A stretch of 56,231 nucleotides of DNA. Source: an uncultured Planctomycetia bacterium. GTDB lineage: Bacteria; Omnitrophota; Gorgyraeia; JACOVV01. The translations under genes were made by a program, and so were the position numbers. The notes beneath the pieces are model-generated. The model was given only the letters and a program-made list of their open reading frames with translations. It did no database searches and was not told the origin of the DNA. This document shows positions 11,011 to 46,283 of the stretch, piece by piece (the first letter of the stretch is position 1; the number at the start of each line of letters is the position of its first letter). The stretch covers positions 1 through 56,231 of the forward strand of contig CAYJQR010000003.1 of the NCBI GenBank assembly GCA_964372345.1, in the 5' to 3' direction.

Positions 11011-11022
11011 CTTAACCCTCCG

Positions 11023-14068: not shown

Positions 14069-14886
14069 TAAAACGCCCCTTTTAGAAAGCTCATGATTCC
14101 ACTACGATATTGACGCATCTTAAAAAGATACCGCCCGTGAAGGAAAAACTCCCTGGCAATAAACCGTTCCAGTTTCATCGGTTTGTTCATCAACCCGGCG
14201 TCTAGCTTGATTTGCTGAATAACACCCCACCGTTCCGGATGCCTCTGGGAGACCGATTGACCGTGTAACCTCTTCGAATAGAGACACTCCGGAAGATTGC
14301 TCATTTGAGTTAATGGGATAAAACGGAGCCAGAGAGCGTAATCTTGGCCAAAAGGATATTCTTCCGGATATCTTCCCGCCTTCAAAAAAATCCTTTTTGA
14401 AAAAACAACGGACCCATGGCAAAAGACATTAATCGTTTTTAAAAACCGCTTTATCTGCGCATCCTCGGTCGGGAATTTTACCGTGTAAAGCCCTTCCCCT
14501 TGCTCATCAACCCCTTTATAGAACGTCCCGATCAGCCCTACCGCGGATTTCTCTCGCAGATATTCCATCTGTAAACGCAGCCGCTGGCCGATGGAGACAT
14601 CATCCGCGTCCTGGCGGGCAATCCATGGGGCCGTGGTTTGGCTGATGGCGCGATTGAGTGATTTCGTCAGGCCAAGACGGGTTTCATTTCTGAAGATTTT
14701 GATTCGATCGTCCGCTGCGGCCCACTTTTGCACTAAATTCATCGTACCGTCTGTGGAAGCGTCATCGACAATGATAAACTCGTAGTCGCTAAACTGCTGA
14801 TCCAGGATACTCCGGATAGCCTTGTCTAAAAAGCGCTCCGTATTATAGACGCTCATGACAACACTCAATTCAGGGGTTCTATTCAT
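14065..14886 (-). CDS. GT2 family glycosyltransferase
   Basis: LSVVMSVYNTERFLDKAIRSILDQ...IIVDDASTDGT and QDADD motifs. Confidence 0.85.
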   Translation of the reverse strand: MNRTPELSVVMSVYNTERFLDKAIRSILDQQFSDYEFIIVDDASTDGTMNLVQKWAAADDRIKIFRNETRLGLTKSLNRAISQTTAPWIARQDADDVSIGQRLRLQMEYLREKSAVGLIGTFYKGVDEQGEGLYTVKFPTEDAQIKRFLKTINVFCHGSVVFSKRIFLKAGRYPEEYPFGQDYALWLRFIPLTQMSNLPECLYSKRLHGQSVSQRHPERWGVIQQIKLDAGLMNKPMKLERFIAREFFLHGRYLFKMRQYRSGIMSFLKGAFY

Positions 14887-20323: not shown

Positions 20324-20327
<4 letters not shown>

Positions 20328-21547
20328 CCCGCGCCGAGTTCCGTATAAAGACTCGCGTACCTTCCAGCGATTTTTTGCATATCATACCGATGTTCCACGC
20401 GATCTCGCGCTTGACGCCCTAATGAAGACGCCGGCGATGGGTGAGTGAATACGGCAAGGATCTTCTCTGATAATTCTGTGATCCCCCCTGGGGTAAACAG
20501 CCAACCTGATTTCCCATCCTCAACGACTCCCTCCGCTATCCCAGGTAATCTGGAAGCGATCACCGGTATGCCGCACGCCATCGCTTCCAATAACACATTG
20601 GGTAATCCTTCGCGATAGGAAGAGAGAACAAATAAATCCGCCGTTCGATAGTAGTCCTCTATCTCCTCTATCTTTTCCAGCAACAATACCTCCGACCCTA
20701 ACCCTTCTTTTTGGATTGTCTCCTGAATTCCTTTAACCAACTCCGGTAGTATCTCTTGATACCGGCTGTCGGTAGAACCGACTAAGACTAGGAATGACGG
20801 ATCGATTTTCTCTTTGACTCTTCTCCACGCGGCAAGAAGATCCGCAGCCCCCTTTTCGCGGGAGAAAAAACCTACAAACAAAATCATTTTAACATTCAAG
20901 GGAATTTTTAGTTTTTTACGTATCTCTTCTTTTTCCGATGCATTCTTTATGGGACTGAATCGTTTAAGATTCACTCCATTGGGAATCTCGGCAATTCTCT
21001 TTTTACGCAGGAACGAATTCCTGGCGCTTTCCAAGAAAGCCGGAGTGATCCCCACGAAACAGTCGCATAATAGAAGAACCTCTTTCGCTATTCTCCCAAA
21101 GAGTCCTCTCCGATCCAAGTTCGCTTGCAGGGTTAGCGGGTCGTCAAAACCCAGTGAAGTAAATTTCTGGATGATTTTTTTCCCAAACATCTTGGCAAGC
21201 AATATCACCAGATAATTTTTGGAACTAACGCCGTGGCAATGAACAACCTGGATTCTGCGGACTATTCGAAGAAACACCCACAGATATTGAGGAGCGGCAA
21301 AGAAAAGATTGAAGACTTGGTTTTCCCATACTTTGATTCGGAAAACTTGTACCCCATCCACTGTCTCGGTATCTCTATCTCTGGAAGGGTTGAGACTCGC
21401 GGCAAGAACATAGAAGAGGAAAGAATTGTTTAAAGCCTGAATTAAAGAACGGCACTGATGAGACCCTCCAAATCCTTCCGGATAGTAGGCGCTCACCACC
21501 ATGCAAACGCCGAGCTTCATCTTTTCTTTCTTTTTAAATCCTGGCAT
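20324..21547 (-). CDS. GT4 (GT-B) glycosyltransferase
   Basis: 407 aa with the REGLPNVLLEAMACGIPVIAS motif. Confidence 0.8.
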
Positions 21548-22839
21548 TGGCGATTCAGCAAGATAAACCAGGGGGCGGTCAATGATAGAAGCCCTATGTT
21601 GTGCATTCCTAAGAAACGATAGATTTCGTACGGCTGCCGCGTCGCGACCTGTGGAAGAAAAAAAGTCGCAATTTCGTTGAAATGAGTCAGTTTTAGAAAA
21701 AGAGTATTGGGTATAATAATGCCCGTCAATAAAAAATATGCCGCGACTGTTCCTATTAAATACCGGCGCTTCAACCCTTGCCGTAAGTACGGGAGCAGTA
21801 ATAGAAACGCGGGGAAAGAAAGTATCAGGTATTCAAACGCCGAATGGGGCCCGAACAGCAAAGGATAGAGACATCCCATTGAAAGGAGAAAATCCGGGCA
21901 AAACTCTGTGTCTTTTGAAGCCAACCTTTTCTTGATCTTGGAATAAAAAGAAATAAGCGCCGTCAATAAAAGGGCGCCGATACCAAGGGCGGTCCGGATG
22001 ATGACCGGAATAATCTCATGGTTTGGGACAATCAGCAGGCCCTCTTTCGTGCTTCTAAACCCAACAGCCCATTTCAACAGCATGGACTGGAGGGCAAGCC
22101 CATCCCAAACCAGTATCCCGTGATGGAACACGGAATTTCCGGTTCCCGGAGCGACCCGTTGTATCAGCCCCGCGACATAACCAAACCCCATCGCGTCTCC
22201 ATAAAGGAATTGCGTAATCCCCAAAAAGATCGTTAGGAATAAAGCCGACCAGAAAAATACTCTCTTTCGTATCAGCAAAAACAGAAATATCAGGAGAAGA
22301 GGATATATTTTAATCAGCGCCGCGGCCGCGAGGCAAAACCCGCAGAAGGAAAAAGAATTTTTCTTGTAAGCGACAATGCCGGCCAGGACAAACGCCATCT
22401 GCCACAACTCTGGCATCGTTGTTTGAACATCATAAATAAGAGGCTGAAAGTTCAGCATTAACAAACAGACCGTCAGCTTGGCACTAAAACTGAATCCCCT
22501 CGCGTAATAAAAAAAGGTGGTCATCAATAGGGTTAATAAAGAAATAGCAGCCATATAAATCATCGCGAATTTATAGGCCGGCGCTTGAAAATGGGAAAGA
22601 ACAACCACAGGATGCATGATTAAATTAAAGACGGGGCCATACAGATTTTCAACGGGCGGTTTCTCAAAAGTCGCCGTCGCCCCTTGCAGAAAATTCACCA
22701 AAGGCGCCGCTCTTTTAACAATATGGTTGTTGGGTAAATCTTTGACAAAAAGTCCCAGCGCCGCGTAGAGATGGTACATCGTATAAAATAGGAAGCCAGT
22801 TATTAGATACGCTTTTGGTCTTTTAAGGATGTCTAACAT
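21517..22839 (-). CDS. polytopic membrane protein, GT-C-like glycosyltransferase or glycan polymerase candidate
   Basis: 440 aa with more than 10 hydrophobic helices, located in a glycan operon. The family assignment is not secure. Confidence 0.4.
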   Translation of the reverse strand: MLDILKRPKAYLITGFLFYTMYHLYAALGLFVKDLPNNHIVKRAAPLVNFLQGATATFEKPPVENLYGPVFNLIMHPVVVLSHFQAPAYKFAMIYMAAISLLTLLMTTFFYYARGFSFSAKLTVCLLMLNFQPLIYDVQTTMPELWQMAFVLAGIVAYKKNSFSFCGFCLAAAALIKIYPLLLIFLFLLIRKRVFFWSALFLTIFLGITQFLYGDAMGFGYVAGLIQRVAPGTGNSVFHHGILVWDGLALQSMLLKWAVGFRSTKEGLLIVPNHEIIPVIIRTALGIGALLLTALISFYSKIKKRLASKDTEFCPDFLLSMGCLYPLLFGPHSAFEYLILSFPAFLLLLPYLRQGLKRRYLIGTVAAYFLLTGIIIPNTLFLKLTHFNEIATFFLPQVATRQPYEIYRFLGMHNIGLLSLTAPWFILLNRQCQDLKRKKR

Positions 22840-22882: not shown

Positions 22883-24463
22883 TCAGGAAGCGATCGAAAC
22901 TGCCTCCAGAGGACGAAGGAGTTCTTGGACGACAACTTCATTTTGTTCATTTTCTTTGTTGACAGTGACAGTAGAAGTAGCCACCTCGATTTTATCGAGT
23001 AAGATATCCGCGATCTTTTGATCCCACACCTGTTTCTTTCTCAAGCCGGTCACCCCGAAACCCTTTGGTATTTTGTACTGCGCTATTGGAAAAGTATTAT
23101 ATACGAGGCGGAACAAATCCTTCTCCTCTCCTTTGTGGAATACGAAATCAGAATAAACACCCCCCTCAGGGATGAAATCCGGAGTAATCCATCCATGCTG
23201 GACTGCCATGTCAAACATAACCGATTTCGGAAAAGGTATCGCGATATGAACCTGCGGCATATCGTCAATCTGGGCCGCCATTTTTAACGTTTTAATAGCT
23301 TGCGCCACCTTTTCGCCAGGGAACCCGATCATCCATTGACCATTGACTTTGATCTTATATTTCTTGAGCGACTGAACACATTTCATAATCTGCTCATCGC
23401 TTGTTCTCTTTAACAGGATCTTATTGCGGTATTCCTCGTCTCCGTGTTCAAAACCAATAACCACTCTCTTGCAACCTGATTGGTAGAGAAGCTCAGCGGT
23501 TTCTTCGTCAATTTCATCGGCTCTTCCGAGACAATAATAAGTCAGGTACCAAAAACGCTTTCGATATTTCTGGCAAAATTCTCTAAGCCAGTCTTTGCTG
23601 ATTAAGAAAGAATCATCTTTAAAACGGATAGGATCCAATGCCACTATAAAGAGATTAAGAAAGTTACGAGCGACTTCTTTGAGTGATTTTGACTTCAAGA
23701 TCTTCTTGCTGTTGTGGTACCATCGCATCTTCAATAAAGTACCAATCTCGTCTAACACGGAATCCACGCTTCGTTTGCGATAATACTTTCCCATACCAGG
23801 GCCTTTCCCCATTTGGAACATCATGTACGGAGTATTACAAAAGGAACACTTTCCCTTGCATCCCAGTCCTGTAAAGATTCCTGAATAATCCAGCTGTTGT
23901 CTGTCAATGGAGAAGTCATCAATGTTTCCATACCAGGGTTTCAGGGGATTGCGAATAATCTGGCCGTCCTTCTTAAAGTGCATACTCAGAACCCCCGTAT
24001 AATCGCCACCTGTTTCAACTGCTTGGCAGAGTTCCAGCATGGCGATTTCACCTTCTCCCGTGCAGATAAAATCAATCCCCTCAGGTTGAATAGCGGTATC
24101 AGGACAAACTGTAGGGTGAATACCTCCAAGACCAATCAGAATCTCAGGGCGAATGTTCTTAATACGCTGGGCAATGCGAACTGCTTTGCGGAAACTACCG
24201 GAATCTGTTGAAATCCCTATTATCTTTGGATCAAGTTCCAGCAGTTCTTGCAGGGATATCGGTTCGGCAAAAGGAGTGGTAGGTTCATCTCCCAACATGA
24301 TTTCGTCAAGCCCTTGATAAACACCATAGGACCTGAACCCATTTTTGTTCAGGTGGTTCATGATAAAAAAAGGGCCCATGGAACAAGTCCCTAAAAAAAC
24401 CACTTTTACACTATGATGCTGATCATTGACTCCTATGCTTCTCTTTTGAGAAGTGAGCAACAT
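22883..24463 (-). CDS. class B (B12-binding domain) radical SAM enzyme
   Basis: CKGKCSFC (CxxxCxxC) cluster motif preceded by a Rossmann-like B12-binding region. I chose the ATG at 24463 (MLLTSQ...) because GGAGG lies 4 nt upstream. The longer track ORF would overlap the upstream gene. Confidence 0.75.
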   Translation of the reverse strand: MLLTSQKRSIGVNDQHHSVKVVFLGTCSMGPFFIMNHLNKNGFRSYGVYQGLDEIMLGDEPTTPFAEPISLQELLELDPKIIGISTDSGSFRKAVRIAQRIKNIRPEILIGLGGIHPTVCPDTAIQPEGIDFICTGEGEIAMLELCQAVETGGDYTGVLSMHFKKDGQIIRNPLKPWYGNIDDFSIDRQQLDYSGIFTGLGCKGKCSFCNTPYMMFQMGKGPGMGKYYRKRSVDSVLDEIGTLLKMRWYHNSKKILKSKSLKEVARNFLNLFIVALDPIRFKDDSFLISKDWLREFCQKYRKRFWYLTYYCLGRADEIDEETAELLYQSGCKRVVIGFEHGDEEYRNKILLKRTSDEQIMKCVQSLKKYKIKVNGQWMIGFPGEKVAQAIKTLKMAAQIDDMPQVHIAIPFPKSVMFDMAVQHGWITPDFIPEGGVYSDFVFHKGEEKDLFRLVYNTFPIAQYKIPKGFGVTGLRKKQVWDQKIADILLDKIEVATSTVTVNKENEQNEVVVQELLRPLEAVSIAS

Positions 24464-24530
24464 TTTGCCTCCGCTTGTCATGTAAGTTATTCTATCAAAA
24501 GAAACCTCTATTTTGCAAGAAATATACTCT

Positions 24531-25424
24531 TTACGGCATGCGGTTGTAGAAGTAACGTTCGATGGGCCTTGCCCGGGGGATGTAGCAAACATCCTGCGTG
24601 GTATGCCCAAGGGCTAGACATCCCGTAATCACATACGGATCAGGAATTTTCAAAAGTCTTCTGACTTGCTTTTCCTTTTGTACACTTCCAAAGCTTGTAT
24701 AACTCCCCCAGCAGCATCCGATCCCCATCGTTTCGCAAATAAGATAGATATTTTGAATCCCAGCGGCGCTGTCTAACCAGGGGACAATGCGGTCATCGGG
24801 ATAGCGATAGTCTACTCCATAGGAGACGATCACAAGCAAAGAAGGCGCGTCCGCGAAGAACTGTTTTCCGCCGGGTATCGTGGAAGCAATGAACTTCTTC
24901 ACTTCGACGTCATCAATAAAGATAAACTCCAGCGTCTGCCTGTTGCACGAACTGGGGGCGTGGAGAGCCGCGTCGACAATAATAGTCTTCTCTTCCTCGG
25001 TCAGGGGCTCTCCGGTAAATACCCTTCGACTCCGCCTCCTCTTCATCAAATTTAAAAGACTATCCCGATCAACTTTATATGAAAAACCTTCCACCTTATT
25101 GTAGAAAATATTCGGACAAATCCCGCAGGTTTCTCCACTCTTATATTCATCCAGTATCCTCTTTGCCCACCGATAGTAGCTTTTATCCAAGAGATTATGA
25201 TTTCCTTCTAATAGCGCCTCTAGTTCACCCACGATTTCCTCCTTCGTTCTAGCATCATACCTGTCCGGATGAAATAGAAAGCGTTCGACCACGTGGGCTC
25301 TTTTTCGAATTAACACGTCCACGGCGGTCGGATTTTTCTTCCCCTTGTAATAATAGAGGAATTCACTTGTATAAGCCCTGACCGTAGCATTAATTAATCT
25401 AAAAAAGGAGGGCAGAGTTTTCAT
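24531..25424 (-). CDS. nitroreductase-family flavoprotein with an N-terminal extension of about 130 aa
   Basis: RRSRRVFTGEPLTEEEKTIIVDAALHAPSSCNRQ marks the start of the nitroreductase fold near residue 130. I do not recognise the N-terminal part. Confidence 0.7.
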   Translation of the reverse strand: MKTLPSFFRLINATVRAYTSEFLYYYKGKKNPTAVDVLIRKRAHVVERFLFHPDRYDARTKEEIVGELEALLEGNHNLLDKSYYRWAKRILDEYKSGETCGICPNIFYNKVEGFSYKVDRDSLLNLMKRRRSRRVFTGEPLTEEEKTIIVDAALHAPSSCNRQTLEFIFIDDVEVKKFIASTIPGGKQFFADAPSLLVIVSYGVDYRYPDDRIVPWLDSAAGIQNIYLICETMGIGCCWGSYTSFGSVQKEKQVRRLLKIPDPYVITGCLALGHTTQDVCYIPRARPIERYFYNRMP

Positions 25425-26806
25425 CGGTCCTTGAAGAGATCGACCAGTTCATTTGATTCATACATTTTTTGGTTCAGCGTTAAGAGATTGACTAACCCTT
25501 TTAGAAGCAAACCGTTATATTTAGGATCAATGGCGTTGGCGCGGAGATGAACCGGTTGTCCGTCCCGGCTGACGTGAGTATAGAACCCACCTTCTCCTTG
25601 ATGCAAGCACAAAACCTTCTCTATTAATTCCTTTGATATTTTTAAGTACCACGTGTCTTTTGATAATTCGCCGACCCTTCGTATCGAAATCGCGAAATCA
25701 ACGATTTGATCCATGTGGTCTATATCTTCTTCAGGTGAGATAGGGATTAATCCGTTACTCCACCGTGTTTTCAGCCGTTTATCAATGATCGTTTTTGCTA
25801 ATTGAATATACGCTGGATCCCGCTCTACAAAAACGTAAGTATCCATCAATATATCAACGAAAATGAAGGTGTGTGTCAGAGCCGCATCACTCACAACGCC
25901 TTTTGGGAAATAAAAACCAAAAACAACGTCGTTCTTGATCATCTTCTGACGAACCGACTTTATCCATCGCACCACCACTTTTTTATATTCCCCGTTCCCT
26001 GTCCGTCTAAAGAGTTCTATCAAAGTAAATATAAAAGTGCTGTTGGCTTTCATGATCTGGGTGAAAAGGCCTGAACTTAAATAGTGAAACGCGAAGGGTT
26101 CTTTGAAATTGCTCAAACATTTCTTTACCCATCCTCTATTGTCAAGCCGCTGAGGCTGGTTTCGACGAATTCTTCCCTGATTAGCCAAAAACTCATAGAA
26201 TGCCGCGCATGGTAAATCAACGTTCCAGCGAAAAGGGAAAAACCCGTGTTTCTCGAAATAGGGGTTATCCATCCAAGTCTTTGTAATTACCTCTACCCGT
26301 TCTTGGAGGTATCCATAATCCGCACCCATTTCAAGAAATGTCTCCAGCAATCCTGCCGACCAATAATAACGAAAACGATACTTTCTCTTCTTGCGGATGT
26401 CATAGGTACCAAAGAGATCATTGTCGTCCATAAAGTAAGCTGTTGTTTGGTCAATTGCTTGGTCCAAGACATCTTTTACTTCTTTATCTCTGGTTCTTCT
26501 CCACAACGCATAAAGACCTCCTAAATATTCATCCGTGAAGTAGGAATAGATCAAGTTATTCTGTGCTAATAATGTGTCGAATGAAAAACGCGAAGCTCGA
26601 CGGACTTGTTCTACTAAAAATTCCTCCTCCCCGAAATAAATAAAAAATGGGGCTAAATCGTCGAAATTATCAAAGAGCGTTCTCTGAGAAGCCGGATAAG
26701 TCCTGGAAACAAAGCCGTCGTGATTTAAATAGCGAGTCTTAAAATTATTGATGATCTGCTTTGCAATATCCACAGCTTGGGCGCTAGCGGAGTCAGTAGA
26801 ATGCAT
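25421..26806 (-). CDS. hypothetical protein, 461 aa, family not recognised
   Basis: Long uninterrupted ORF. Its ATG directly abuts the upstream stop (TAGATG) and it overlaps the downstream gene by 4 nt. Aromatic-rich and soluble-looking. Confidence 0.6.
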   Translation of the reverse strand: MHSTDSASAQAVDIAKQIINNFKTRYLNHDGFVSRTYPASQRTLFDNFDDLAPFFIYFGEEEFLVEQVRRASRFSFDTLLAQNNLIYSYFTDEYLGGLYALWRRTRDKEVKDVLDQAIDQTTAYFMDDNDLFGTYDIRKKRKYRFRYYWSAGLLETFLEMGADYGYLQERVEVITKTWMDNPYFEKHGFFPFRWNVDLPCAAFYEFLANQGRIRRNQPQRLDNRGWVKKCLSNFKEPFAFHYLSSGLFTQIMKANSTFIFTLIELFRRTGNGEYKKVVVRWIKSVRQKMIKNDVVFGFYFPKGVVSDAALTHTFIFVDILMDTYVFVERDPAYIQLAKTIIDKRLKTRWSNGLIPISPEEDIDHMDQIVDFAISIRRVGELSKDTWYLKISKELIEKVLCLHQGEGGFYTHVSRDGQPVHLRANAIDPKYNGLLLKGLVNLLTLNQKMYESNELVDLFKDR

Positions 26807-27550
26807 CTATATCTTCCCTGATGTAAAAATGGGCAGAGATTGAACAAGAAGAGATCTAGGGTTGTGGACATACAACTCGATACCCTTCTTTTGAAAATAC
26901 TTTCTCCATCTCTTAGCCCAAATGATTGTTTCCCGCGCTGTGTTATGTTTGTCTCTATATGTTTTGTCCCGGATGATGTCGTTGCGTCTGGTTTGATCGC
27001 GTTCTAGCCAAAAGTAACGCCGATCGTACAAATCAACCCCTACCAAGACGATTTTTCTCCACCTCAGGAGATACGCGAAGTTAATGCAATCAAAGAGGGT
27101 CGATGGGCCATGCGTCAGTCCGCCAAAACTAGCTCTAAAATCATCGTTGGGATACCTCGTTCCTTTAGGACAATCATAATAGAAAAGACACTCTGCTCCT
27201 TCAGGGAAAGAGCCGCTGAGCAGGGCGCGGATGCTTCCCAGTCCTACTTGAAGAATAAAAATTGTTTTCTGGTAATAGGGATTTCCCTTAAGTAGTTGCG
27301 CATACTTCCGAAATTCTTCCCTCCAGATAGCTTGGTTGTAATCATCACTGGCAACTTCCCTGACTAAATGGAAATCGGCGCGGATGAAGTTCTGGTGAAC
27401 AAACCAGCTGAATGAAAGCGTGTTATGTTGTTCTATTCTCTTTATCTCAGCCGGCGCTAGAGCGCTAATTGAATATCCGGAACCAAAGATGAAAATCGTA
27501 TCGGACCGTTTTTTCTTTCTGGCTTCTTCAAACGTTATTTCCTTAACCAT
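26807..27550 (-). CDS. putative nonulosonic-acid (sialyl-type) transferase, CstII/GT42-like or DUF115-like
   Basis: 247 aa. IFIFGSGYSI resembles the CstII IIAGNGPSL nucleotide-binding start. LVGVDLYDRRYFW resembles the GIDFY segment. It abuts the cytidylyltransferase gene (TAAATG). Assignment is from remembered motifs only. Confidence 0.4.
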   Translation of the reverse strand: MVKEITFEEARKKKRSDTIFIFGSGYSISALAPAEIKRIEQHNTLSFSWFVHQNFIRADFHLVREVASDDYNQAIWREEFRKYAQLLKGNPYYQKTIFILQVGLGSIRALLSGSFPEGAECLFYYDCPKGTRYPNDDFRASFGGLTHGPSTLFDCINFAYLLRWRKIVLVGVDLYDRRYFWLERDQTRRNDIIRDKTYRDKHNTARETIIWAKRWRKYFQKKGIELYVHNPRSLLVQSLPIFTSGKI

Positions 27551-28261
27551 TTATATCCTCGTATTACAGCCTTGCCTCTCCCCTAATAAAAACTCGGCTA
27601 TTTTAAAATCAAATTCCGTATCAATATCAACGGAGCGTTCTCGCGGCATTACATAACCAACGGTCCCGTTGGAAACAAATGATCTGGTTTGAATCAACCA
27701 CTCTTTATGCGCTACATAAACGGCTCCGTTAAGAAAATAGGTCCGGGGCAAATCTTGTCTTCTCAACGCCGTTTTCTCTTCTATTTCGAGCACCGGCTTC
27801 ATTCGCTCATCAGAATCAAGTGAATACATCCAGTAAGGACTTTTCTGTGTCTCGGTGACCGAAACACAGGCGTTGGCATTTTTTCTGAGGCATTGTTCCA
27901 CACCGCCGTCAATATCCATTACACTGCGCAAAGGAGAAGTTGGCTGAAGCATCATCACCAGATCATAACCTGGAAGCAGAGTCAGGGCGTGTAAAATCGG
28001 TTCGATACCCGGCGTCTCATCCCGTGACAATTCGTCCGGCCGGACAAAAGGGACTTCACATCCCAAAGACTTCGCCAAACGGATGATCTCTTCGTTCTCC
28101 GAAGAAAGAATCAAGCGGTCAATATACTTCGATTTTTTTGCTTCTTCAACCGTCCAAGTAAGCAGTGGTTTCCCCATAAGGGCTGTGACATTCTTACGAG
28201 GCAACCCCTTAGAACCTCCGCGCGCCGGAATAACCGCCAATACTCTTTTTCCCTCGATCAT
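27551..28261 (-). CDS. neuA: acylneuraminate (nonulosonate) cytidylyltransferase
   Basis: VLAVIPARGGSKGLPRKN motif. Start taken at MIEGKR (ATG at 28261) with an AGAGGA SD. The longer ORF would overlap the upstream gene. Confidence 0.8.
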   Translation of the reverse strand: MIEGKRVLAVIPARGGSKGLPRKNVTALMGKPLLTWTVEEAKKSKYIDRLILSSENEEIIRLAKSLGCEVPFVRPDELSRDETPGIEPILHALTLLPGYDLVMMLQPTSPLRSVMDIDGGVEQCLRKNANACVSVTETQKSPYWMYSLDSDERMKPVLEIEEKTALRRQDLPRTYFLNGAVYVAHKEWLIQTRSFVSNGTVGYVMPRERSVDIDTEFDFKIAEFLLGERQGCNTRI

Positions 28262-28272
28262 TGAAATTCCTC

Positions 28273-29760
28273 TTAAACTGTCCGAACTGCGACGATGTTC
28301 TTCATTTCCTTGACATTTTTGACCTGATACAACAAACGGCAAACCTTTCGGATTTCTTCTTCCGTCAGCGTTACTGCGGACGGCAAACTGATCCCGCGTC
28401 GGGAAATCTCTTCAGAGATGGGGAAATTCTTTTCCTGTCTGGCGCGGCAGTAAGGCGCATAGGGGGGCATTTGGTGAAGCGGATAGAAAACGGGCCGGCA
28501 TTCGATTCCATTCAATAGAAATTTATAGATAAGCTCATCTCGTTTGCCGAAAATACTCTCGTTGATCAAAACCGTGTACAGCCAGAAAACATTCTCCGCC
28601 CACGGTCCCGCAGGCGGCAGCGTAACCCCCTCACAATCCCTGAGAGCGGACGTGTAGGCGTTGGCAATTGTCTGCTTACGATCAACAAATCGCTTATATT
28701 GCTCCAATTGCGCTACGCCAACGGCCGCCTGTAAGTTGGTTATCCGGTAGTTGTACCCTACTTCCAAATGCCAATATCGTTTGTCTTTGGACATTCCATG
28801 ATCGCGCAGTAATTTTGCTCTTTCCGCGTGTTGATCATCTCTGAAAACAATCATTCCTCCTTCACCGGTTGTAATCATCTTGTTCCCAAAGAAGCTAAAA
28901 CACGCGGCATCTCCTAATAGGCCAACTGGCCTTCCCTTGTAGACAGCTCCGAGAGCTTCGGCGCAGTCTTCAATCACTAACAGATGGCGCCGCTTCGCAA
29001 TTTCAAGGAGAGAATCCATATCACAGGGATGCCCATAAAGATGGACAGGCATGATTGCTTTCGTTTTTGGAGTAATCGCTTTTTCCACTTCCTTTGGATC
29101 TAAGCCCCAGGTAGAGAAAGAGACGTCAACAAAAACAGGAATGGCTCCGGTATGGATGACGGCATTGGCGGAAGCAGCAAACGTGAGATCCGGCACAATG
29201 ACTTCGTCCCCAGTCTTAATCCCCAGCGCGACAAGTGATAAATGAAGAGCCGCAGTCCCATTAGTGACGGCGATCGCTTTTCTTCCCTCAAAAATCTTTT
29301 CAAACATCCGTTCGAGTTGGTCAACATACTTCCCTTGGGATGAAATCCAATTGGACTTCACGCAATCCACAACGTAATTCAATTCATTACCGCCTAAATC
29401 AGGCTCTGCGATCGGGATTCGATGGAGCCGGGCGAGACACGCGTAGTCCATCAAGCGGCCTTCTGAATCTATCAGGGGGATATGGCGAATATGCTCATTC
29501 AAGAATCGCGCGATCTTTTCTGGCGGGGTCTCCACATGACAATAAGTAAAATCCTTATTCATGACCTCTTTGACTTTTGCCCGCAAAGTATTCCCTTTCA
29601 GCAAGGATCTCCGTATATCTCCATCCGTGAGCAATCCTTTTAATCGATCGTTTTCGTCAACAACGAAGACGACCCCCTGAGCGTTTCTGTCAATCATCAC
29701 GACGGCTTCACGGAGAGTTTTCCCTTCTGCTATCGCCATCTCTTCTATTGGAGGAAACAT
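28273..29760 (-). CDS. CBS-pair domain fused to a DegT-type sugar aminotransferase
   Basis: 495 aa. The N-terminal ~120 aa form a CBS pair (VVFVVDENDRLKGLLTDGDIRR ... IPLIDSEGRLMDY). The remainder is DegT-like with the FFGNKMITTGEGG lysine motif. Confidence 0.8.
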   Translation of the reverse strand: MFPPIEEMAIAEGKTLREAVVMIDRNAQGVVFVVDENDRLKGLLTDGDIRRSLLKGNTLRAKVKEVMNKDFTYCHVETPPEKIARFLNEHIRHIPLIDSEGRLMDYACLARLHRIPIAEPDLGGNELNYVVDCVKSNWISSQGKYVDQLERMFEKIFEGRKAIAVTNGTAALHLSLVALGIKTGDEVIVPDLTFAASANAVIHTGAIPVFVDVSFSTWGLDPKEVEKAITPKTKAIMPVHLYGHPCDMDSLLEIAKRRHLLVIEDCAEALGAVYKGRPVGLLGDAACFSFFGNKMITTGEGGMIVFRDDQHAERAKLLRDHGMSKDKRYWHLEVGYNYRITNLQAAVGVAQLEQYKRFVDRKQTIANAYTSALRDCEGVTLPPAGPWAENVFWLYTVLINESIFGKRDELIYKFLLNGIECRPVFYPLHQMPPYAPYCRARQEKNFPISEEISRRGISLPSAVTLTEEEIRKVCRLLYQVKNVKEMKNIVAVRTV

Positions 29761-29772
29761 CAGACACTCACC

Positions 29773-30639
29773 CTATCTCTTCCCCTGTTTTTTCAAAATA
29801 TATGCTTGGATCGGCGAATAATTACCAACGGGCGGTAAAGAGGAAAAGAATTTAACGAACTCCGTATTTTTTACGCTCTCACCCTTGGTGACTAATGGAT
29901 GAAGGACTCGAGCAATAAAATAGTGAGAACTGAGAAAATTATGATGAAACACATATCCATTCTCTTTGCGGCTGAATTGCGCGGGTTCAACAACTGTAAA
30001 TATTTTACTGATGGCTTGCAAGAACAAATCTTTGTCAAAGTATTTATTATGGTATGCTTCTTTTAATTCAGAAAGCCCGCATTCCTTTCTGGCCTTATTG
30101 TTATTGAGCAGCCCATCCGTAAAACATTCTATCATAAGATAATATCCTCCCAATACAAGCACTCTTCTAATTTCATGCAGAGCTAACTTTTGTTCTTCCC
30201 AATTTAATATATTAATTAAACACCTTTCACTGTAAACTACGTCGAACATTTCGCTGTCAAACGAAAGTCGCCTCACGTCTCCTTGCATGAATTTGCAATT
30301 TGGTAATTTCCTATCTTTTGCAATCGACAACAATTCCTTGCTAAAATCAACGCCCCAATAGCTATTGGCAGGATAACCCTTGGACAAAACACTCAAAGCA
30401 TATCCATTTCCGCATCCTAGATCTAAAACCCTCAAATTTCTATTCCCTAATTTATTTTTGCCCATGGCGCAGAAACTAGAAATCAACGTAATCTCCTTTT
30501 CTCTGATCACTTCGTCTTCCATGGTAGATTGTGGGGACGCGCCATATTTCGCGGCCTGTTCTTCATAATGCTTCTTAACGAGCTCGTCGCTTTGCACTGA
30601 CAATCTCCTAGTTCCTGTCGTGTCATTACCTGCCTTCAC
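29773..30639 (-). CDS. class I SAM-dependent methyltransferase
   Basis: VLDLGCGNGY motif I. The gene is very AT-rich. 4-nt overlap with neuB. Confidence 0.75.
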   Translation of the reverse strand: MKAGNDTTGTRRLSVQSDELVKKHYEEQAAKYGASPQSTMEDEVIREKEITLISSFCAMGKNKLGNRNLRVLDLGCGNGYALSVLSKGYPANSYWGVDFSKELLSIAKDRKLPNCKFMQGDVRRLSFDSEMFDVVYSERCLINILNWEEQKLALHEIRRVLVLGGYYLMIECFTDGLLNNNKARKECGLSELKEAYHNKYFDKDLFLQAISKIFTVVEPAQFSRKENGYVFHHNFLSSHYFIARVLHPLVTKGESVKNTEFVKFFSSLPPVGNYSPIQAYILKKQGKR

Positions 30640-31694
30640 TCTATTAATTCTTCCGTGAGAATCGTGTCCTTTTGTATATTTTTTTTAGCCCTCTTGCCGA
30701 CAATTTCTTCTAGCATCTTTGGCTGCAACCCTGTTGCGGGTCTTTTAAAAACAAGGTCATCTCTTCTGATCATCATTCCCGCAGGAATGTCCTTCATTGC
30801 CGCGATACTTCGTCTCATCCAAGTCAAGTTTTTCAGTTCGGCCGCCGTTGGTTTCTTCATCGGGCTCCCTAGCGCCTTTTCTATCTCCCGTATTCCTCGC
30901 ACAAGATTTCTGAATTCATCAGGTTCTAAGGAAGAGGAATGATCTGGGCCAGGAAGCGTCCGATCCAATGTAAAATGCTTTTCGACAATGACAGCTCCCA
31001 AAGCCACAGCCGTATAAGCAGAAAAATGGCTTTGTGTGTGGTCTGAATATCCCACCAACACATTCAAATCATCTCTCATAGAAACCATGGCCCTTAGATT
31101 CGCGTCTTCTATGGCGGAAGGATAATTTGTCGTACATTGCAGCAGGATTACCTGATCATTTCCAGTCGTTCGAACCGCTTCCAAGGATTCACGAATCTCC
31201 TCTACGGTAGACATTCCCGTTGACAGAATGATCGGCTTATTTAGTTTTGCAATGTATTTTAGAAAAGGGCTCTCGACTAATTGCCCCGAAGCAATTTTAA
31301 AAGCGTCCACATTCAGGCCGTTTAAGAAATCTACATCACTAAAATGATAGGGTGTTGAAAGGAATTGAATATCCAATTCCTGACACAGGGAAATAAGTCT
31401 AGGATAGATATTTTCTGATAGCTCCAGCTTCTTGAGCATTTCAAACTGAGACTCTTGGGGATCGGTAGTCTTCAGTTGGTAAGCGGCTTTAGGTGATTGT
31501 CTGGTTGTGACTGTTCCCGCCTTAAATGTTTGGAACTTTACACAATCGGCCCCTGATTTTTTCGCCTGCCTGACCAACTCAAGCGCTAACTCTGTGTCTC
31601 CATTATGATTAACCCCTGCTTCCGCAACAATAAAAACCGGCGCTCCTTCACCGATCGTTTTCCTTCTTAGCTTGATTGTCTTCGACATACCCAC
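30636..31694 (-). CDS. neuB: N-acetylneuraminate/legionaminate/pseudaminate synthase family (NeuB), with C-terminal SAF domain
   Basis: 352 aa with FIVAEAGVNHNGD, CVKFQTFK and GYSDHT motifs. Confidence 0.85.
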   Translation of the reverse strand: MGMSKTIKLRRKTIGEGAPVFIVAEAGVNHNGDTELALELVRQAKKSGADCVKFQTFKAGTVTTRQSPKAAYQLKTTDPQESQFEMLKKLELSENIYPRLISLCQELDIQFLSTPYHFSDVDFLNGLNVDAFKIASGQLVESPFLKYIAKLNKPIILSTGMSTVEEIRESLEAVRTTGNDQVILLQCTTNYPSAIEDANLRAMVSMRDDLNVLVGYSDHTQSHFSAYTAVALGAVIVEKHFTLDRTLPGPDHSSSLEPDEFRNLVRGIREIEKALGSPMKKPTAAELKNLTWMRRSIAAMKDIPAGMMIRRDDLVFKRPATGLQPKMLEEIVGKRAKKNIQKDTILTEELIE

Positions 31695-31772: not shown

Positions 31773-32762
31773 ATGAAAATATGCATCTGGTGCGAAGTCA
31801 CCGACCAACCTTGGGGAGGAAGCAACCAATTCCTTCGCGCACTTTCAAAGGAGTTGACAAAACGGGGCTACGACATTATGCACAAACCCCAAAAAAGGTG
31901 TGATATTGTCCTGTTGAATGCCCACAACACAGGTCCGGGTTCGTATCTATCTCCTAATCACGTTGCTGAACTAAAACAGCACGGCCGTATTTCGTCCTAT
32001 GGATCCCTTATTCCAGCATCTCTATGGAACTTGCTGCCACGGCGAGGCCCTTTTTTATTTCATCGCCTAGATGGTGTCCCGGAATCCTATCGAAGAGTTA
32101 AAACGAAAGCGGATGATATTCAGTTTGCTGTCAATCCATTGGCTGATTTTACTATCTTTCAAAGTAACTATTGCCGTGACGACTTCAAACAATATGGTAT
32201 CCACCCCCTCCGCTCCTGCGTGATTTACAACGGCACCGATCCTTCGTTATTTTACCCAACGGAAGATTCATTCCTAATGGATTCTACTTTCCGCTTAGTC
32301 GCAGTTTCATGGTCAATGAATATCCATAAAGGATTCTCAAAATTAGCTGAAATATCCCAAATCCCCGGTGTGGAAATCCGGTTTATCGGACGCTGGCCCC
32401 CTGCCATTGACACGGCCAAAGTTACTTTATTGGGAACTAAGTCATCTCCGCAGATCGCTGAAATTCTGCGGCAATCCCATGCCATGATCCACGCCGCAGA
32501 AAACGATCCCTGCTCTAATGCGATTATAGAAGCGCTTGCCTGTGGCTTGCCTATCCTTTTTAATGATTCCGGAGGGAATCGCGAGTTAGCAGGAGATTAT
32601 GGAGTCGTGTTGACGAATAACGCGAAGACGGATATCGAACAACTACGATATTCCTATAAAGAGCTCCGAGAAAAAATCCTTGAGCACCGGGTTCGCTTTT
32701 TGATCAGTCGCGCCGCCGACCAGTATCTCGATGCTTTCCAACACGCGTTAAGTTCTCATTGA
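31773..32762 (+). CDS. GT-B (GT4-like) glycosyltransferase
   Basis: 329 aa with a C-terminal ENDPCSNAIIEALACGLPILF motif. Confidence 0.65.
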   Translation: MKICIWCEVTDQPWGGSNQFLRALSKELTKRGYDIMHKPQKRCDIVLLNAHNTGPGSYLSPNHVAELKQHGRISSYGSLIPASLWNLLPRRGPFLFHRLDGVPESYRRVKTKADDIQFAVNPLADFTIFQSNYCRDDFKQYGIHPLRSCVIYNGTDPSLFYPTEDSFLMDSTFRLVAVSWSMNIHKGFSKLAEISQIPGVEIRFIGRWPPAIDTAKVTLLGTKSSPQIAEILRQSHAMIHAAENDPCSNAIIEALACGLPILFNDSGGNRELAGDYGVVLTNNAKTDIEQLRYSYKELREKILEHRVRFLISRAADQYLDAFQHALSSH

Positions 32763-32765
32763 AGC

Positions 32766-33770
32766 ATGACTAAAAAGCAAACAATCACCTGGCTTGTCCC
32801 CCAACGTCCTTGGAAACGTTTCTTGCGGCCGTGGTCCTCTTCACAGTGGCATCCGGATCATTCACTGGGAAGTGTTTGGATCAGGGGACATCAAATAGCC
32901 CCCTACCTCCAACAAAAGGGATATTCAGTGCTTTGCAACAAAATCTCCCCTTCGCTGGATATTGCTATTTTCTTACGCCGCTACGACGCGGAAGATGTCA
33001 TCCTGGCTCAACGATTAAAAAAACGAGGAGTCAAGATCATCGTGGATGTTGTTGCGAATTATTTTAGCCAGGCCTCTTCTCAACAAAGAGACACTTTTCT
33101 AAGACTCATTGATTTAGCGGACCAGATATGGACGGTGTCCCCCTTCCTGAAGGAGGTCGCTTCGGCCCATCACCCTGATGTTCATTTCATTCCTGATTCC
33201 GTGAATCCTCATCACTTCTACAAACGAGACATTCCTAATACTACGACGATGAAAAAACCGCCTCTCGCCATCGGATGGGCTGGGATTTCTCACAAGGCCT
33301 CTTTTTTAGCGATGTTGACGCCTGTCCTGAGACCAGCGATAGAACAGAAAAAATTACGCGTGGTGGTCATCAGCGATTCTCATCCCAAACTTCCTTTTCC
33401 TTTTGAATTCCGCCGCTGGCGGTATTCTTGTTTCCCACGCGATATTTCAACGTGCGATCTTTGTGCCGCTCCTCGTGACCTGGGTAACGATTATGAAAAA
33501 AGTCATAGTTTCTTTAAGATCGGTGTTTTCATGGCTATGGGAGTTCCTGCGCTAGCGAGCAACGTCCCTTCGTATCGCTTGCTACTGGAAGACGGTAAAG
33601 CTGGGGCTATTTGTCACTCTCTGGAAGAGTGGGGGTATCATCTTAGCCGTTACATAGCTATGCCCAAGTTGAGAATGGAGTGGAGCCGTCAATCCTATCA
33701 GAAGATGGTTCCTTTTCTCACCCCCTCTGTTGCAGAACAAATCGCCGAACAGCTGCGCCGCTTTTCTTAA
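32766..33770 (+). CDS. hypothetical protein, possible divergent GT-B glycosyltransferase
   Basis: 334 aa, transcribed 3 nt downstream of the preceding GT. Only weak GT-B-like C-terminal features (FKIGVFMAMGVPALAS). Confidence 0.4.
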   Translation: MTKKQTITWLVPQRPWKRFLRPWSSSQWHPDHSLGSVWIRGHQIAPYLQQKGYSVLCNKISPSLDIAIFLRRYDAEDVILAQRLKKRGVKIIVDVVANYFSQASSQQRDTFLRLIDLADQIWTVSPFLKEVASAHHPDVHFIPDSVNPHHFYKRDIPNTTTMKKPPLAIGWAGISHKASFLAMLTPVLRPAIEQKKLRVVVISDSHPKLPFPFEFRRWRYSCFPRDISTCDLCAAPRDLGNDYEKSHSFFKIGVFMAMGVPALASNVPSYRLLLEDGKAGAICHSLEEWGYHLSRYIAMPKLRMEWSRQSYQKMVPFLTPSVAEQIAEQLRRFS

Positions 33771-35650
33771 ACATGTTTCCCCCCCCAATTCTTATACCAC
33801 TCCGTGAACATCAAGACCCGCCACAATTTTTTACCCTGAACTACGTCCTTTTTGTTCTTTTCCATTAGCTTCATGATCTTTGGGATATCTAAGAATTGAT
33901 CGACTCCTGGAAAATACAGATTGCTTTTTAAGTAATCCTCCATCCCCGGCTTTAAGAAAATTTTAGAAAAGTCAAAAGTGAACCCTCTCTTACGACGATA
34001 AGCGAAGCATCGCCCAAAATGCCTTTCAGCGATTACCTTGAGCGGGTATTTTCCCTTTCGTCGTATTTTGAACTCAAAAGGAATTGACAGCGCCAAATGG
34101 ACCATTTCTTTATCCAAAAAAGGCACCCTTACTTCCACTGAATTCGCCATGCTCGCCAGATCGACCTTCTTTAGAATCACCGCTTCTAGCATAGCTTTGT
34201 ACCAAACATACAAAAGCCCGTTTAATTCGGGGTTCCGCGCTCCTTCACACACAAAATGATCCAGCAAATCCTTTCTAAAATCCATCAAGCTCTCCGGAGC
34301 ATATTTCTTCGCGGAGAGAAGATTGTTCATTTGAACATCGGCATACTGTGGCAAAATAGACCGCTGGTGAATATATTTTTCTACCATTTGAAAATACCGC
34401 GGTTGAAGCATTCTAAAAACAGGGCTTCTCCCCCACTGATTAATACCCATTTTTTGATACTTCGAAAATAGAAACGCCGAATAGAAAGGTGTATCATACC
34501 CCGCGAAGTTTTCATCACCGCCATCTCCACTGAGAATCACTTTAAACCCTTTTTGGGCAGCCGCTTTTGAAATGATATAGGTCGGCAGAATAGAAGGATC
34601 ATACAAAAGATCATCCACATTCTTTAAAGCATCCACGCAATCTTGCAAGGTTGGATGAAACAATACCTTTACGAGATTCTGCTCGGATAAATTTCGAATC
34701 TTTCTGACCCAGCCATACTCTGAGAATCCATCTTCTGAATAAAGGTGGAATGCCGTGAGGTTTCCTTTTTCCATCAGAATTTTTGTAATCAACGTTGAAT
34801 CAATCCCGCCGCTTAAAAAAACTCCCACCGGAACATCGGACACCAGCTGTTTTTCCACCACTCTTTTCAGAGTCTCTTCGACTTCGGCGATCATTGCTTT
34901 TTCAGGACGAGGTTGAATGTGAAAATGGTAATCCCAGTATTTATTTTTCTCTTTGATACTTCCACTGTCGCTATCCACCACGCAAAATTCGCCGGCGTCT
35001 AATCTGTAAATATCCTTAAAGGGAGTTTTGGGAGGAGGGATTTGATCGAAAAGGAAAAATTCAAAAATATTCTCGTCGGAAATTTTAATGTCCGGAACGT
35101 AGGCGAGGATTGCTTTAATCTCCGAAGCGAAACAGAATAGCCCCTCCTTAACATGGTAATAAAGCGGTTTGACTCCGATGGGATCACGGAAAAGAATGAC
35201 TTCTTTTTTTCTAGAATCGTAGATACAAAAGGCAAAAATCCCCTCGATCTGGTCAACAATTTCAGTTCCCCATTCTTCATAACCATGGCATAAAACTTCC
35301 GTATCAGAGTGGGTTTTGAAAACATGTCCTTTGCCGGTTAAAAATTGCCGCAACCGGCGATAATTATAAATTTCTCCATTGAACACGCACCAAATCGTTC
35401 CATCTTCATTACTGAGCGGCTGCCTTCCGGAATCCAAATCAATAATAGAAAGCCGCTGATGGCCTAATCCGATCTGATAATCTCCCTTCGGTAAGACTTG
35501 AGTATCATAGAAAACTTGGTTTTTGTTGGAGCCGCCTAACAGAAAACCATATTCGTCGGGTCCCCTATGCTTTAAGCTAAAGGAAGCTCTTACTAAATCA
35601 TGAATCTGAATAGGATACTGCTCGGAGATAACTCCAAAGATTCCACACAT
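33767..35650 (-). CDS. asparagine synthase-like glutamine amidotransferase, copy 2
   Basis: 627 aa with the MCGIFG nucleophile and the SGGIDST PP-loop. Confidence 0.85.
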   Translation of the reverse strand: MCGIFGVISEQYPIQIHDLVRASFSLKHRGPDEYGFLLGGSNKNQVFYDTQVLPKGDYQIGLGHQRLSIIDLDSGRQPLSNEDGTIWCVFNGEIYNYRRLRQFLTGKGHVFKTHSDTEVLCHGYEEWGTEIVDQIEGIFAFCIYDSRKKEVILFRDPIGVKPLYYHVKEGLFCFASEIKAILAYVPDIKISDENIFEFFLFDQIPPPKTPFKDIYRLDAGEFCVVDSDSGSIKEKNKYWDYHFHIQPRPEKAMIAEVEETLKRVVEKQLVSDVPVGVFLSGGIDSTLITKILMEKGNLTAFHLYSEDGFSEYGWVRKIRNLSEQNLVKVLFHPTLQDCVDALKNVDDLLYDPSILPTYIISKAAAQKGFKVILSGDGGDENFAGYDTPFYSAFLFSKYQKMGINQWGRSPVFRMLQPRYFQMVEKYIHQRSILPQYADVQMNNLLSAKKYAPESLMDFRKDLLDHFVCEGARNPELNGLLYVWYKAMLEAVILKKVDLASMANSVEVRVPFLDKEMVHLALSIPFEFKIRRKGKYPLKVIAERHFGRCFAYRRKRGFTFDFSKIFLKPGMEDYLKSNLYFPGVDQFLDIPKIMKLMEKNKKDVVQGKKLWRVLMFTEWYKNWGGKHV

Positions 35651-42469: not shown

Positions 42470-42481
42470 TGAGGGGAAATT

Positions 42482-46228: not shown

Positions 46229-46283
46229 ATTGGGGGGAAAGATATGGAGTCGGTTAATCTGTCAAGAGCCGCAAGAAAACCGT

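Follow-up and report, generated by a model that had tools for sequence, protein, structure and literature searches.

A nonulosonic acid gene run with embedded radical SAM and nitroreductase genes in a glycan island of an uncultured Omnitrophota bacterium: indications of a modular composition

Nonulosonic acids (NulOs) decorate flagella, S-layers, capsules, and lipopolysaccharide (LPS) and shape phage and immune recognition. Mass-spectrometry surveys have revealed many NulO variants without a known genetic basis. The described systems closest to the locus studied here are the leg/ptm genes of Campylobacter jejuni and the LPS loci of Legionella pneumophila. Our locus is encoded on contig CAYJQR010000003.1 of an uncultured bacterium (GenBank assembly GCA_964372345.1; GTDB lineage Omnitrophota; Gorgyraeia; JACOVV01), of which positions 1 to 56,231 were analyzed; this 56-kb stretch is called the window throughout. 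It contains a run of minus-strand genes in which a NulO core is combined with an uncharacterised protein of 247 amino acids (p247), a second one of 461 amino acids (p461), a nitroreductase-fold protein, and a class-B radical S-adenosylmethionine (SAM) enzyme (rSAM). With moderate confidence, we read this run as one predicted, transcription-coupled block within a surface-glycan island, built from three modules that are found apart from each other elsewhere.

In common with the C. jejuni and L. pneumophila loci, the window encodes a NeuB/LegI synthase, a putative LegC-family aminotransferase, a predicted CMP-NulO synthetase, and a methyltransferase adjacent to the synthase. Precedents for this last adjacency are the ORF8-ORF9 pair of L. 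pneumophila and PtmH of C. jejuni, the role of ORF8/PtmH being the N-methylation of a 5-acetimidoyl group (PMC3766260). NulO loci with an adjacent methyltransferase are already known, and the present locus is of value for offering two specific candidates for new chemistry in glycan tailoring. Unlike the described loci, its core has no adjacent LegB-, LegH-, LegG-, or PtmE-type genes; instead, it comprises a distant GT42-like transferase, an embedded class-B rSAM, and a p461-nitroreductase cassette. Furthermore, a CBS domain is shared with the PtmE-type nucleotidyltransferases, which also occur in the related loci L030 and L114 (L-numbers denote related loci), but in the window it is the aminotransferase that carries the CBS pair as a fusion.

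Open reading frame (ORF) analysis of the window delimits a co-directional run of ten genes, reaching from position 31694 down to 20324:

30636-31694, minus strand: NeuB/LegI-type nonulosonic acid synthase (PF03102, 312 bits, plus SAF domain)
29773-30639, minus strand: class I SAM methyltransferase (Methyltransf_25, 73 bits; also Methyltransf_11 and Methyltransf_31)
28273-29760, minus strand: CBS-pair domain (residues ~10-104) fused to a putative LegC-family, pyridoxal phosphate-dependent sugar aminotransferase (DegT_DnrJ_EryC1, 430 bits, residues 122-475)
27551-28261, minus strand: predicted CMP-nonulosonic acid synthetase (cytidylyltransferase; CTP_transf_3, 73.6 bits, above the Pfam cut-off)
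26807-27550, minus strand: p247, putative CMP-NulO transferase, distantly GT42-like (CstII/Cst-I) by profile, Foldseek, and motifs
25421-26806, minus strand: p461, (alpha/alpha)6-barrel protein from a rare family with no characterised member, predicted to be cytoplasmic (no signal peptide; AlphaFold2 model with pLDDT 92.6 and pTM 0.92)
24531-25424, minus strand: nitroreductase-fold flavin mononucleotide (FMN) protein with an N-terminal extension of ~115 amino acids (PF00881, 85.5 bits, cut-off 23.5, matching residues ~117-290 only)
22883-24481, minus strand: class-B (B12-binding) rSAM (PF02310, 50.6 bits, cut-off 32.1; PF04055, 60.5 bits, cut-off 29.5)
21517-22839, minus strand: GT87-like polytopic membrane glycosyltransferase of the GT-C type (PF09594, 32 bits, cut-off 25)
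20324-21520, minus strand: GT4 glycosyltransferase, the final gene of the run (Glycos_transf_1, 125.8 bits)

From neuB to the GT4 gene, the junction distances are -4 nt (neuB and methyltransferase gene overlapping), 12 nt (to the aminotransferase gene), 11 nt (to the cytidylyltransferase gene, given its start at ATG 28261), 0 nt (TAAATG at 27550/27551, cytidylyltransferase/p247), 0 nt (TAGATG at 26806/26807, p247/p461), -4 nt (p461/nitroreductase), 49 nt (to the rSAM gene, given its start at ATG 24481), 43 nt (rSAM to the GT87-like gene), and -4 nt (GT87-like/GT4). The longest ORFs of rSAM and cytidylyltransferase open at TTG codons (24610 and 28342, respectively); these are probably not real starts, since they would result in overlaps of 70-80 nt with the upstream genes, and ATG 24481 and ATG 28261 are more plausible. 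The start at 24481 was also chosen by an independent gene call on an identical contig. For neuB, whose longest ORF opens at GTG 31694, ATG 31688 is the likely start. The original prediction for this locus, made by a model from the sequence alone, had described eight genes on one strand. Its TAAATG and TAGATG junctions and its 4-nt overlaps are exact, but the run has ten genes, the GT87-like and the GT4 gene having to be added. A relative whose proteins are about 74-89% identical shows the gene order of the run unchanged, and the close relatives of the locus derive from groundwater metagenomes. The GT87-like gene is kept downstream of rSAM in the relatives L023 and L029, and a GT87 gene is also present in L115.

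Such an arrangement could be functionally meaningless: unrelated glycan genes would have come together by chance in an island where such genes are dense, and p461 and p247 would be spurious ORFs or ORFs in decay. In agreement with this, promoter- and terminator-like matches in the run equal the shuffle background, such that the operon boundaries gain no positive support and a promoter-like site in the 49-nt gap before rSAM is statistically weightless. GC content by gene, overall and at third codon positions (GC3), likewise reveals no discontinuity and no trace of a recent cassette insertion. However, chance packing does not account well for 0-nt junctions and 4-nt overlaps, for an order conserved at 74-89% identity, for high-confidence folds of p461 and p247, for hundreds of full-length homologs with invariant residues, or for pairings that recur across phyla, and we regard it as highly improbable. 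Tight operon packing in glycan islands alone does not prove a single pathway either, and a modular view guards against that over-reading.

NeuB, the methyltransferase, the DegT-type aminotransferase, and the cytidylyltransferase had been proposed, together with a CstII-like transferase, as the recognisable core, and hidden Markov models (HMMs) support them as a NulO set. For NeuB, the NeuB/NnaB equivalog model TIGR03569 yields 422.6 bits and passes its cut-off of 399.65, while the PseI model (308 bits) fails its cut-off; solved relatives are PseI (8h2c), SpsE, and NmNeuB. A homolog of the methyltransferase (33% identity, 97% coverage) is located in the unrelated NulO locus L030, downstream of NeuB with a gap of 0.3 kb. 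The equivalog model closest to the aminotransferase is TIGR04181 of the LegC family (378 bits, cut-off 420), and the PseC model reaches 293 bits (cut-off 423). PseF is the sole specific model matched by the cytidylyltransferase, with 154 bits and under its cut-off of 205.7; the protein is 53% identical to the cytidylyltransferase that adjoins a p247 homolog in L114. Together with p247, these assignments support a predicted role of the core in the synthesis, activation, and transfer of a nonulosonic acid.

No Pfam, NCBIfam, or PADLOC match above threshold was obtained for p247, which the original prediction had called CstII-like. In support of this call, the family profile of p247 matches only GT42 sialyltransferases (CstII, Cst-I) among PDB entries, over the full length and with E values of 0.07-0.2. 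The AlphaFold2 model (pLDDT 92.7) has Cst-I (2p2v) as its best and sole high-probability Foldseek match (probability 1.0, E 4e-3, TM 0.48). The protein resembles CstII and Cst-I (1ro7, 2p2v) also in being a single domain of ~250-290 amino acids with a GxGxS loop, a G-[IV]-D-[FL]-Y...Y motif, and an invariant His further downstream, retained here as G23-x-G25-x-S27, G171-V-D-L-Y175...Y179, and H202, and in its linkage to CMP-NulO synthesis genes. It differs by the profile E value of ~0.1, the TM of ~0.48, and the position of the invariant His, which aligns four positions off the catalytic His188 of CstII. Thus, "CstII-like" is the best available call for this protein, whose membership in GT42 is putative. 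The family comprises more than 500 uncharacterised environmental homologs, one of which has a weak MptE/Maf-like Pfam match.

For a survey of its genomic contexts, 80 metagenomic p247 loci were examined and de-duplicated at 80% identity; 23 of the independent loci span at least 8 kb. NeuB or a cytidylyltransferase is found near the p247 homolog in 15 of these 23 independent loci, often directly adjacent. L030 carries a full NulO cluster, composed of a PseB/LegB-like short-chain dehydrogenase/reductase (SDR), DegT, p247, cytidylyltransferase, formyltransferase, PIG-L, NeuB, methyltransferase, and a CBS-linked nucleotidyltransferase (CBS-NTP-transferase). From these NulO genes near its homologs, and from its abutment to the cytidylyltransferase in the window, p247 is probably a CMP-NulO transferase. 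Neither p461 nor the nitroreductase nor an rSAM of the window type occurs in any of 64 p247 loci.

The rSAM shares with HpnJ, PhpK, BchE, TokK, GenK-type enzymes, and AprD4 the N-terminal B12-binding domain and the CxxxCxxC core (CKGKCSFC, residues 208-215), but forms a clade of its own. It stays far under all NCBIfam equivalog cut-offs (HpnJ as the best with 136.6 bits versus 577.6; PhpK with 101 bits). The closest solved core is that of AprD4 (6fd2, E 1e-11), and the closest B12 domain that of TokK. The clade is narrow, with about 18 database proteins at 35% identity or more, the next relatives having at most 31%. What further sets the enzyme apart from the characterised class-B rSAMs is its context of nonulosonic acid and glycan genes. 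Outside the window lineage, six contexts were identified, listed here with the identity of their rSAM to that of the window:

L117 (74%): GNAT, DegT, Epimerase_2, PseB/LegB-like SDR, rSAM, p247-like, methyltransferase, CBS-aminotransferase (cut by the contig end)
L115 (71%): cytidylyltransferase genes, AsnB/HisH/HisF, carbamoyltransferase, rSAM, NeuB, p247-like
L114 (39%): NeuB, hexapeptide acetyltransferase, CBS-NTP-transferase, cytidylyltransferase, p247, GT4c-like, rSAM, p334-like
L112 (43%): NeuB and NeuC about 6 kb upstream; GT4c- and p334-like genes downstream
L113 (40%): Wzm/Wzt cluster with GT4c and p334; no NulO gene within 10 kb
L116 (35%): Wzx, rSAM, DegT, SDR; a 10-kb contig without NeuB

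Including the window lineage, the rSAM clade is linked to NulO genes in five of seven independent contexts, and in four of those it lies no more than two genes away from a p247 homolog. In none of the six outside contexts is it accompanied by p461 or the nitroreductase. L116 does encode an unknown protein of 461 amino acids, which was considered as a p461 and rejected, as it has no homology to p461. The most informative locus is L117, where the canonical enzymes that are missing in the window adjoin the same gene set. The set of rSAM, p247, methyltransferase, and CBS-aminotransferase therefore seems to work with the canonical route rather than to replace it. Our literature search found no paper that combines "nonulosonic" with "radical SAM". 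For legionaminic or pseudaminic acid together with cobalamin or radical chemistry, it returned just the Legionella LPS paper, which holds an unrelated rSAM ORF besides the methyltransferase-NeuB precedent (PMC3766260).

The same contexts also bear on a different explanation, which requires the following two genes divergent from neuB:

31773-32762, plus strand: GT4c, a glycosyltransferase (Glycos_transf_1)
32766-33770, plus strand: p334, a divergent GT-B glycosyltransferase without Pfam match, whose family profile matches BshA and PglA (E ~1e-5)

According to this explanation, the rSAM would have no NulO-specific role; it would modify a backbone sugar or lipid-linked intermediate made with GT4c and p334, and would be found near NulO genes since such glycans are often NulO-capped. 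GT4c- and p334-like genes indeed flank or neighbour the rSAM in L112, L113, and L114; the Wzm/Wzt-type cluster of L113 has rSAM, GT4c, and p334 without a NulO gene within 10 kb, and the L116 contig has no NeuB. GT4c-like genes are, moreover, frequent in p247 loci (13 of the 23). On the other side, in L117 and L115, for which no GT4c or p334 match was reported, the rSAM directly adjoins the p247 homolog, NeuB, and NulO-precursor enzymes, and in the window GT4c and p334 are located on the opposite strand, ~7 kb from rSAM. L033 independently pairs a p247 homolog (59% identity) with a directly following B12-rSAM of another subfamily. On this evidence, a purely backbone-directed rSAM appears unlikely to us. 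Following both NulO genes and transferases of the GT42-like kind, the rSAM clade is a concrete candidate, open to testing, for a new tailoring reaction on NulOs.

The two genes between p247 and rSAM behave differently. For p461, neither Pfam nor NCBIfam nor PADLOC gave a match above threshold (GH76 in Pfam, the only hit, reaches 17 bits, with a cut-off of 25.9). By the structure-based annotation proposed along with the original prediction, this protein is a confident (alpha/alpha)6 barrel; for the N-terminal extension of the nitroreductase, no Pfam or PDB relative was obtained. Foldseek aligns p461 with AGE-superfamily isomerases and epimerases, GH47, and GH76 at TM values of 0.5-0.68 and about 10% identity, many matches having probability 1.0, and the best of them include mannose isomerase, cellobiose 2-epimerase, and GlcNAc 2-epimerase. 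Distant family members have weak Pfam matches to PL2, GH127, GH88, GH76, C5-epimerase, and GH47. Compared with the AGE superfamily and GH47, GH76, GH88, and GH127, p461 shares the barrel, but its invariant residues (D50, E155, K253, N255, D366, D370, K436, and a C-terminal Asp-Arg, conserved across both subgroups) could be assigned to no known catalytic set, and it is usually paired with a nitroreductase-fold protein. The superfamily is rare, with 386 clusters at 50% identity among 1.84 billion representatives. Unusually for a C-terminus, the last two residues, Asp460-Arg461, are invariant in both subgroups, which suggests that the tail might enter the active site or dock on a partner.

Its neighbour has the FMN motifs RRSxR and PSSCNxQ in common with nitroreductases such as NfsA/NfsB-like proteins, BluB, and the C-terminal domain of FbiB (family-conserved R130, R131, S132, R134, and P157-S-S-C-N-R-Q163), and the solved structures closest to it are those of generic NAD(P)H nitroreductases. 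It differs from that superfamily by the ~115-residue extension, by four invariant Cys (C103, C160 inside PSSCNxQ, C238, and C280), and by the pairing with p461 in 16 of 21 p461 loci. Within the extension, H44, E47, and E93 are invariant along with C103; combined with the Cys, they hint at redox-active thiols or at a site for a metal or Fe-S cluster. Pfam, NCBIfam, and PADLOC scans and the PDB profile search revealed no relative of the extension. Neither the p461 family nor that of the extended nitroreductase has a characterised member that we could find, and a literature search for nitroreductases in polysaccharide loci returned generic genome papers only.

We surveyed p461 in 20 genome loci from many phyla plus L026 and L119. 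The 16 of 21 loci with an adjoining extended nitroreductase come from the cluster analysis and show the pair in either order, reversed in many hosts; L119 has it as well. The hosts include Rhodospirillales, a deltaproteobacterium, Ratteibacteria, Planctomycetota, Bdellovibrionales, Nitrospirae, and Omnitrophica. Other common neighbours are GT4c-like (13/21), GT4a-like (12/21), and GT2b-like genes (11/21), all three of which are present in the window, too. At the level of loci, NeuB occurs within 10 kb in only 5 of 22, eight of the loci being syntenic planctomycete loci. If these are collapsed and the window lineage is added, NeuB is nearby in 6 of 11 lineages with the pair, namely L005, L015, L016, L019, L119, and the window. 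Elsewhere, e.g., in the eight planctomycete loci and in L026, the cassette resides in clusters rich in glycosyltransferases and methyltransferases without NeuB within 10 kb. As the cassette exists in places with no NulO gene nearby and, outside the window lineage, is never accompanied by p247 or rSAM, we conclude that it is autonomous; a facultative role in NulO or amino-sugar chemistry is possible. To see whether p461 replaces NeuC, its NeuB loci were inspected for Epimerase_2; they do lack it, yet most p247 NulO loci have none within reach either, and the absence is non-discriminating.

Some further observations concern those cassette loci that contain NeuB. A HAD-type phosphatase is encoded beside or near NeuB in L016 (4043-6511), L019 (7246-8822), and L119 (2855-4445), which suggests a NulO-9-phosphate route (Kdn/Neu-9-P-like) rather than the nucleotide-sugar route to legionaminic (Leg) or pseudaminic (Pse) acid. 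PIG-L and formyltransferase genes are recurrent in L015, L016, and L119. In L119 (3411-11368), an Omnitrophica relative, a NeuB-ATP-grasp pair like that of the window at 48967-51048 lies ~3.6 kb upstream of the nitroreductase-p461 pair in a same-strand operon that also holds the HAD phosphatase, a faint Epimerase_2, PIG-L, and a formyltransferase-deacetylase fusion.

The original prediction assigned all eight genes to one pathway leading to a differently built nine-carbon sugar, in which the extra genes replace the 4,6-dehydratase, the N-acetyltransferase, and the hydrolysing 2-epimerase. In such a pathway p461 would be an AGE-like 2-epimerase/isomerase acting on a free hexose, the nitroreductase would have a redox function, and the rSAM would catalyse a C-methylation or deoxygenation. 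The absence of canonical enzymes nearby holds true. No LegB/PseB-type 4,6-dehydratase is encoded within the operon, and Epimerase_2 (LegG/NeuC) is absent from the entire window as judged by Pfam (most ORFs of at least 150 amino acids) and six-frame tblastn. Six-frame tblastn of the window with GNAT and hexapeptide queries from L117 and L114 finds, as to sugar N-acetyltransferases, only a genuine LpxA (45416-46228), and with CBS-NTP-transferase queries from related loci it matches only the CBS domain of the aminotransferase, no sugar nucleotidyltransferase being encoded in the window. The sole candidate for a 4,6-dehydratase is the following gene:

11023-12027, minus strand: SDR, weakly LegB/RmlB-like (dTDP-glucose 4,6-dehydratase, 153 bits; LegB, 130 bits with a cut-off of 475; both below cut-off)

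Its identity to the Polysacc_synt_2-type SDRs encoded in the NulO loci L030 and L114 is 31-32%, and it may or may not belong to the pathway.

Besides these missing enzymes, several findings are in accordance with a single pathway. The isomerases and 2-epimerases matched structurally by p461 act on free reducing sugars, the type of substrate used by NeuB; the junctions couple the genes translationally; the cassette has NeuB within 10 kb in L005, L015, L016, L019, and L119, with no confident Epimerase_2 in the first four; and AprD4, the closest solved rSAM core, is a sugar diol dehydratase. Nevertheless, outside the window lineage the rSAM clade never occurs with p461 or the nitroreductase, so that the supposed trio does not hold together beside neuB/neuA, and the cassette is missing from all 64 p247 loci. 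In L117, the same set stands beside canonical dehydratase, aminotransferase, acetyltransferase, and 2-epimerase, which leaves the proposed replacement unsupported. The cassette also occurs in clusters where no NeuB is in reach (the eight planctomycete loci and L026). Nothing can be concluded from the absence of Epimerase_2: among 30 p247 loci that span at least 8 kb, just 7 contain it, as opposed to 15 with NeuB. By fold, p461 is equally similar to the GH47, GH76, GH88, GH127, PL2, and C5-epimerase families. A single pathway is thus improbable in our view. Of the proposal that the extra genes derivatise the NulO, the part concerning the rSAM stays plausible, its clade recurring next to NulO genes and p247; the cassette is a separate matter, as it is also found in clusters without NeuB within 10 kb.

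We therefore return to the reading of three modules. Gene order, family and fold assignments, and co-occurrence are demonstrated; every substrate and reaction named in the following is what we infer from them. In a first module, the CBS-LegC aminotransferase would aminate a nucleotide-4-keto-6-deoxy-N-acetylhexosamine, NeuB would condense the resulting free hexose with phosphoenolpyruvate (PEP), the cytidylyltransferase would yield the CMP-sugar, and the GT42-like p247 would move the NulO of this CMP-sugar onto a glycan, with an N- or O-methylation by the SAM methyltransferase. Dehydratase, N-acyltransferase, and hydrolysing 2-epimerase would be supplied from outside the operon, probably from outside the window. 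The class-B rSAM as second module may be an accessory tailoring enzyme of the NulO/p247 system, its reaction most likely being a cobalamin-dependent methylation and, less likely, an AprD4-like radical dehydration, and its target the NulO, the N-acyl group of the NulO, or the sugar to which the NulO is attached. In the third module, p461 and the extended nitroreductase would act as a carbohydrate-binding (alpha/alpha)6 catalyst and its FMN redox partner, modifying a sugar in the same class of glycans; this cassette appears to have been inserted between p247 and rSAM in the window lineage and its 74-89% relatives. All three modules accompany, in varying combinations, a glycosyltransferase core of GT4c, p334, GT4a, and GT2b.

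Several points weigh against this reading. Both aminotransferase and cytidylyltransferase stay below the curated equivalog cut-offs, such that the NulO may be of the Leg, the Neu, or another type. The GT42 similarity of p247 is weak both by sequence profile (E ~0.1) and by structure (TM ~0.48). The rSAM contexts L113 and L116 have no NeuB in reach, and it is arguably GT4c and p334 that accompany the rSAM most constantly. With NeuB within 10 kb in 6 of 11 cassette lineages, the independence of the cassette from NulO chemistry may be doubted. The related loci are, furthermore, metagenomic contigs with 10-kb flanks, whose neighbours were named mainly by BLAST against the window proteins, and the co-occurrence fractions do not convert into probabilities, as a background frequency of NeuB beside glycan genes in general is not available for comparison.

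Going one step further, the locus might contain two uncharacterised glycan-tailoring systems, i.e., an rSAM clade acting on a NulO or NulO-capped glycan together with a GT42-like transferase, and a redox-linked p461-nitroreductase cassette. We put this forward tentatively, as a possibility that is still rather doubtful. If true, the rSAM product would be an undescribed C-methylated or radical-deoxygenated nine-carbon sugar, and the two-enzyme cassette would perform a new redox-linked sugar modification in eight or more bacterial phyla, mostly uncultivated ones. A function for the cassette would annotate several hundred genes in glycan clusters of poorly known phyla, Omnitrophota, Planctomycetota, and Nitrospirota among them.

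The run is embedded in a glycan island of ~45 kb that contains Wzm/Wzt-like ABC transporter genes (7149-8731), several GT2, GT4, and PMT_2 enzymes, and a flippase, as well as a second trio of DegT, methyltransferase, and SDR at 9164-12027. The glycosyltransferase core mentioned above (31773-33770 on the plus strand and 14065-16001 on the minus strand) recurs with the p461, p247, and rSAM loci, GT4c plus p334 in the rSAM loci L112, L113, and L114, and points to a putative glycan backbone shared across many uncultivated phyla. Two AsnB-like glutamine amidotransferases are encoded on the minus strand at 16002-17891 and 33767-35650, the former resembling the XrtA/PEP-CTERM-associated amidotransferase (655 bits, cut-off 817); they could serve in uronic acid amidation or in the formation of acetamidino groups.

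A second ulosonic-acid-like block is located on the minus strand at 40802-51955:

51062-51955, minus strand: CDP-alcohol phosphatidyltransferase
50011-51048, minus strand: NeuB paralog, below the NeuB cut-off
48967-50010, minus strand: PylC-like ATP-grasp protein
47804-48874, minus strand: enolase-superfamily protein
46284-47807, minus strand: FMN_red protein of 507 amino acids
45416-46228, minus strand: genuine LpxA
44590-45468, minus strand: FkbM methyltransferase
42482-44458, minus strand: B12-rSAM
40802-42469, minus strand: B12-rSAM, passing the cut-off of the Sden_1168-family P-methyltransferase model (615 versus 575 bits)

No PEP mutase was seen in this block. Because a genuine LpxA is encoded, the host is predicted to be a diderm.

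Near the left end of the window, the ORFs 2739-4154 (plus strand, 471 amino acids) and 6444-7214 (plus strand, 256 amino acids) have no Pfam match even at E 10; the latter is overlapped by an ORF in antisense and is possibly no gene. A tRNA-Thr (CGU) at 5595-5666 on the minus strand, between purN (4113-4745) and the ABC transporter genes, lies at the left edge of the island and is the only RNA gene that Rfam and tRNA scans reveal in the window.

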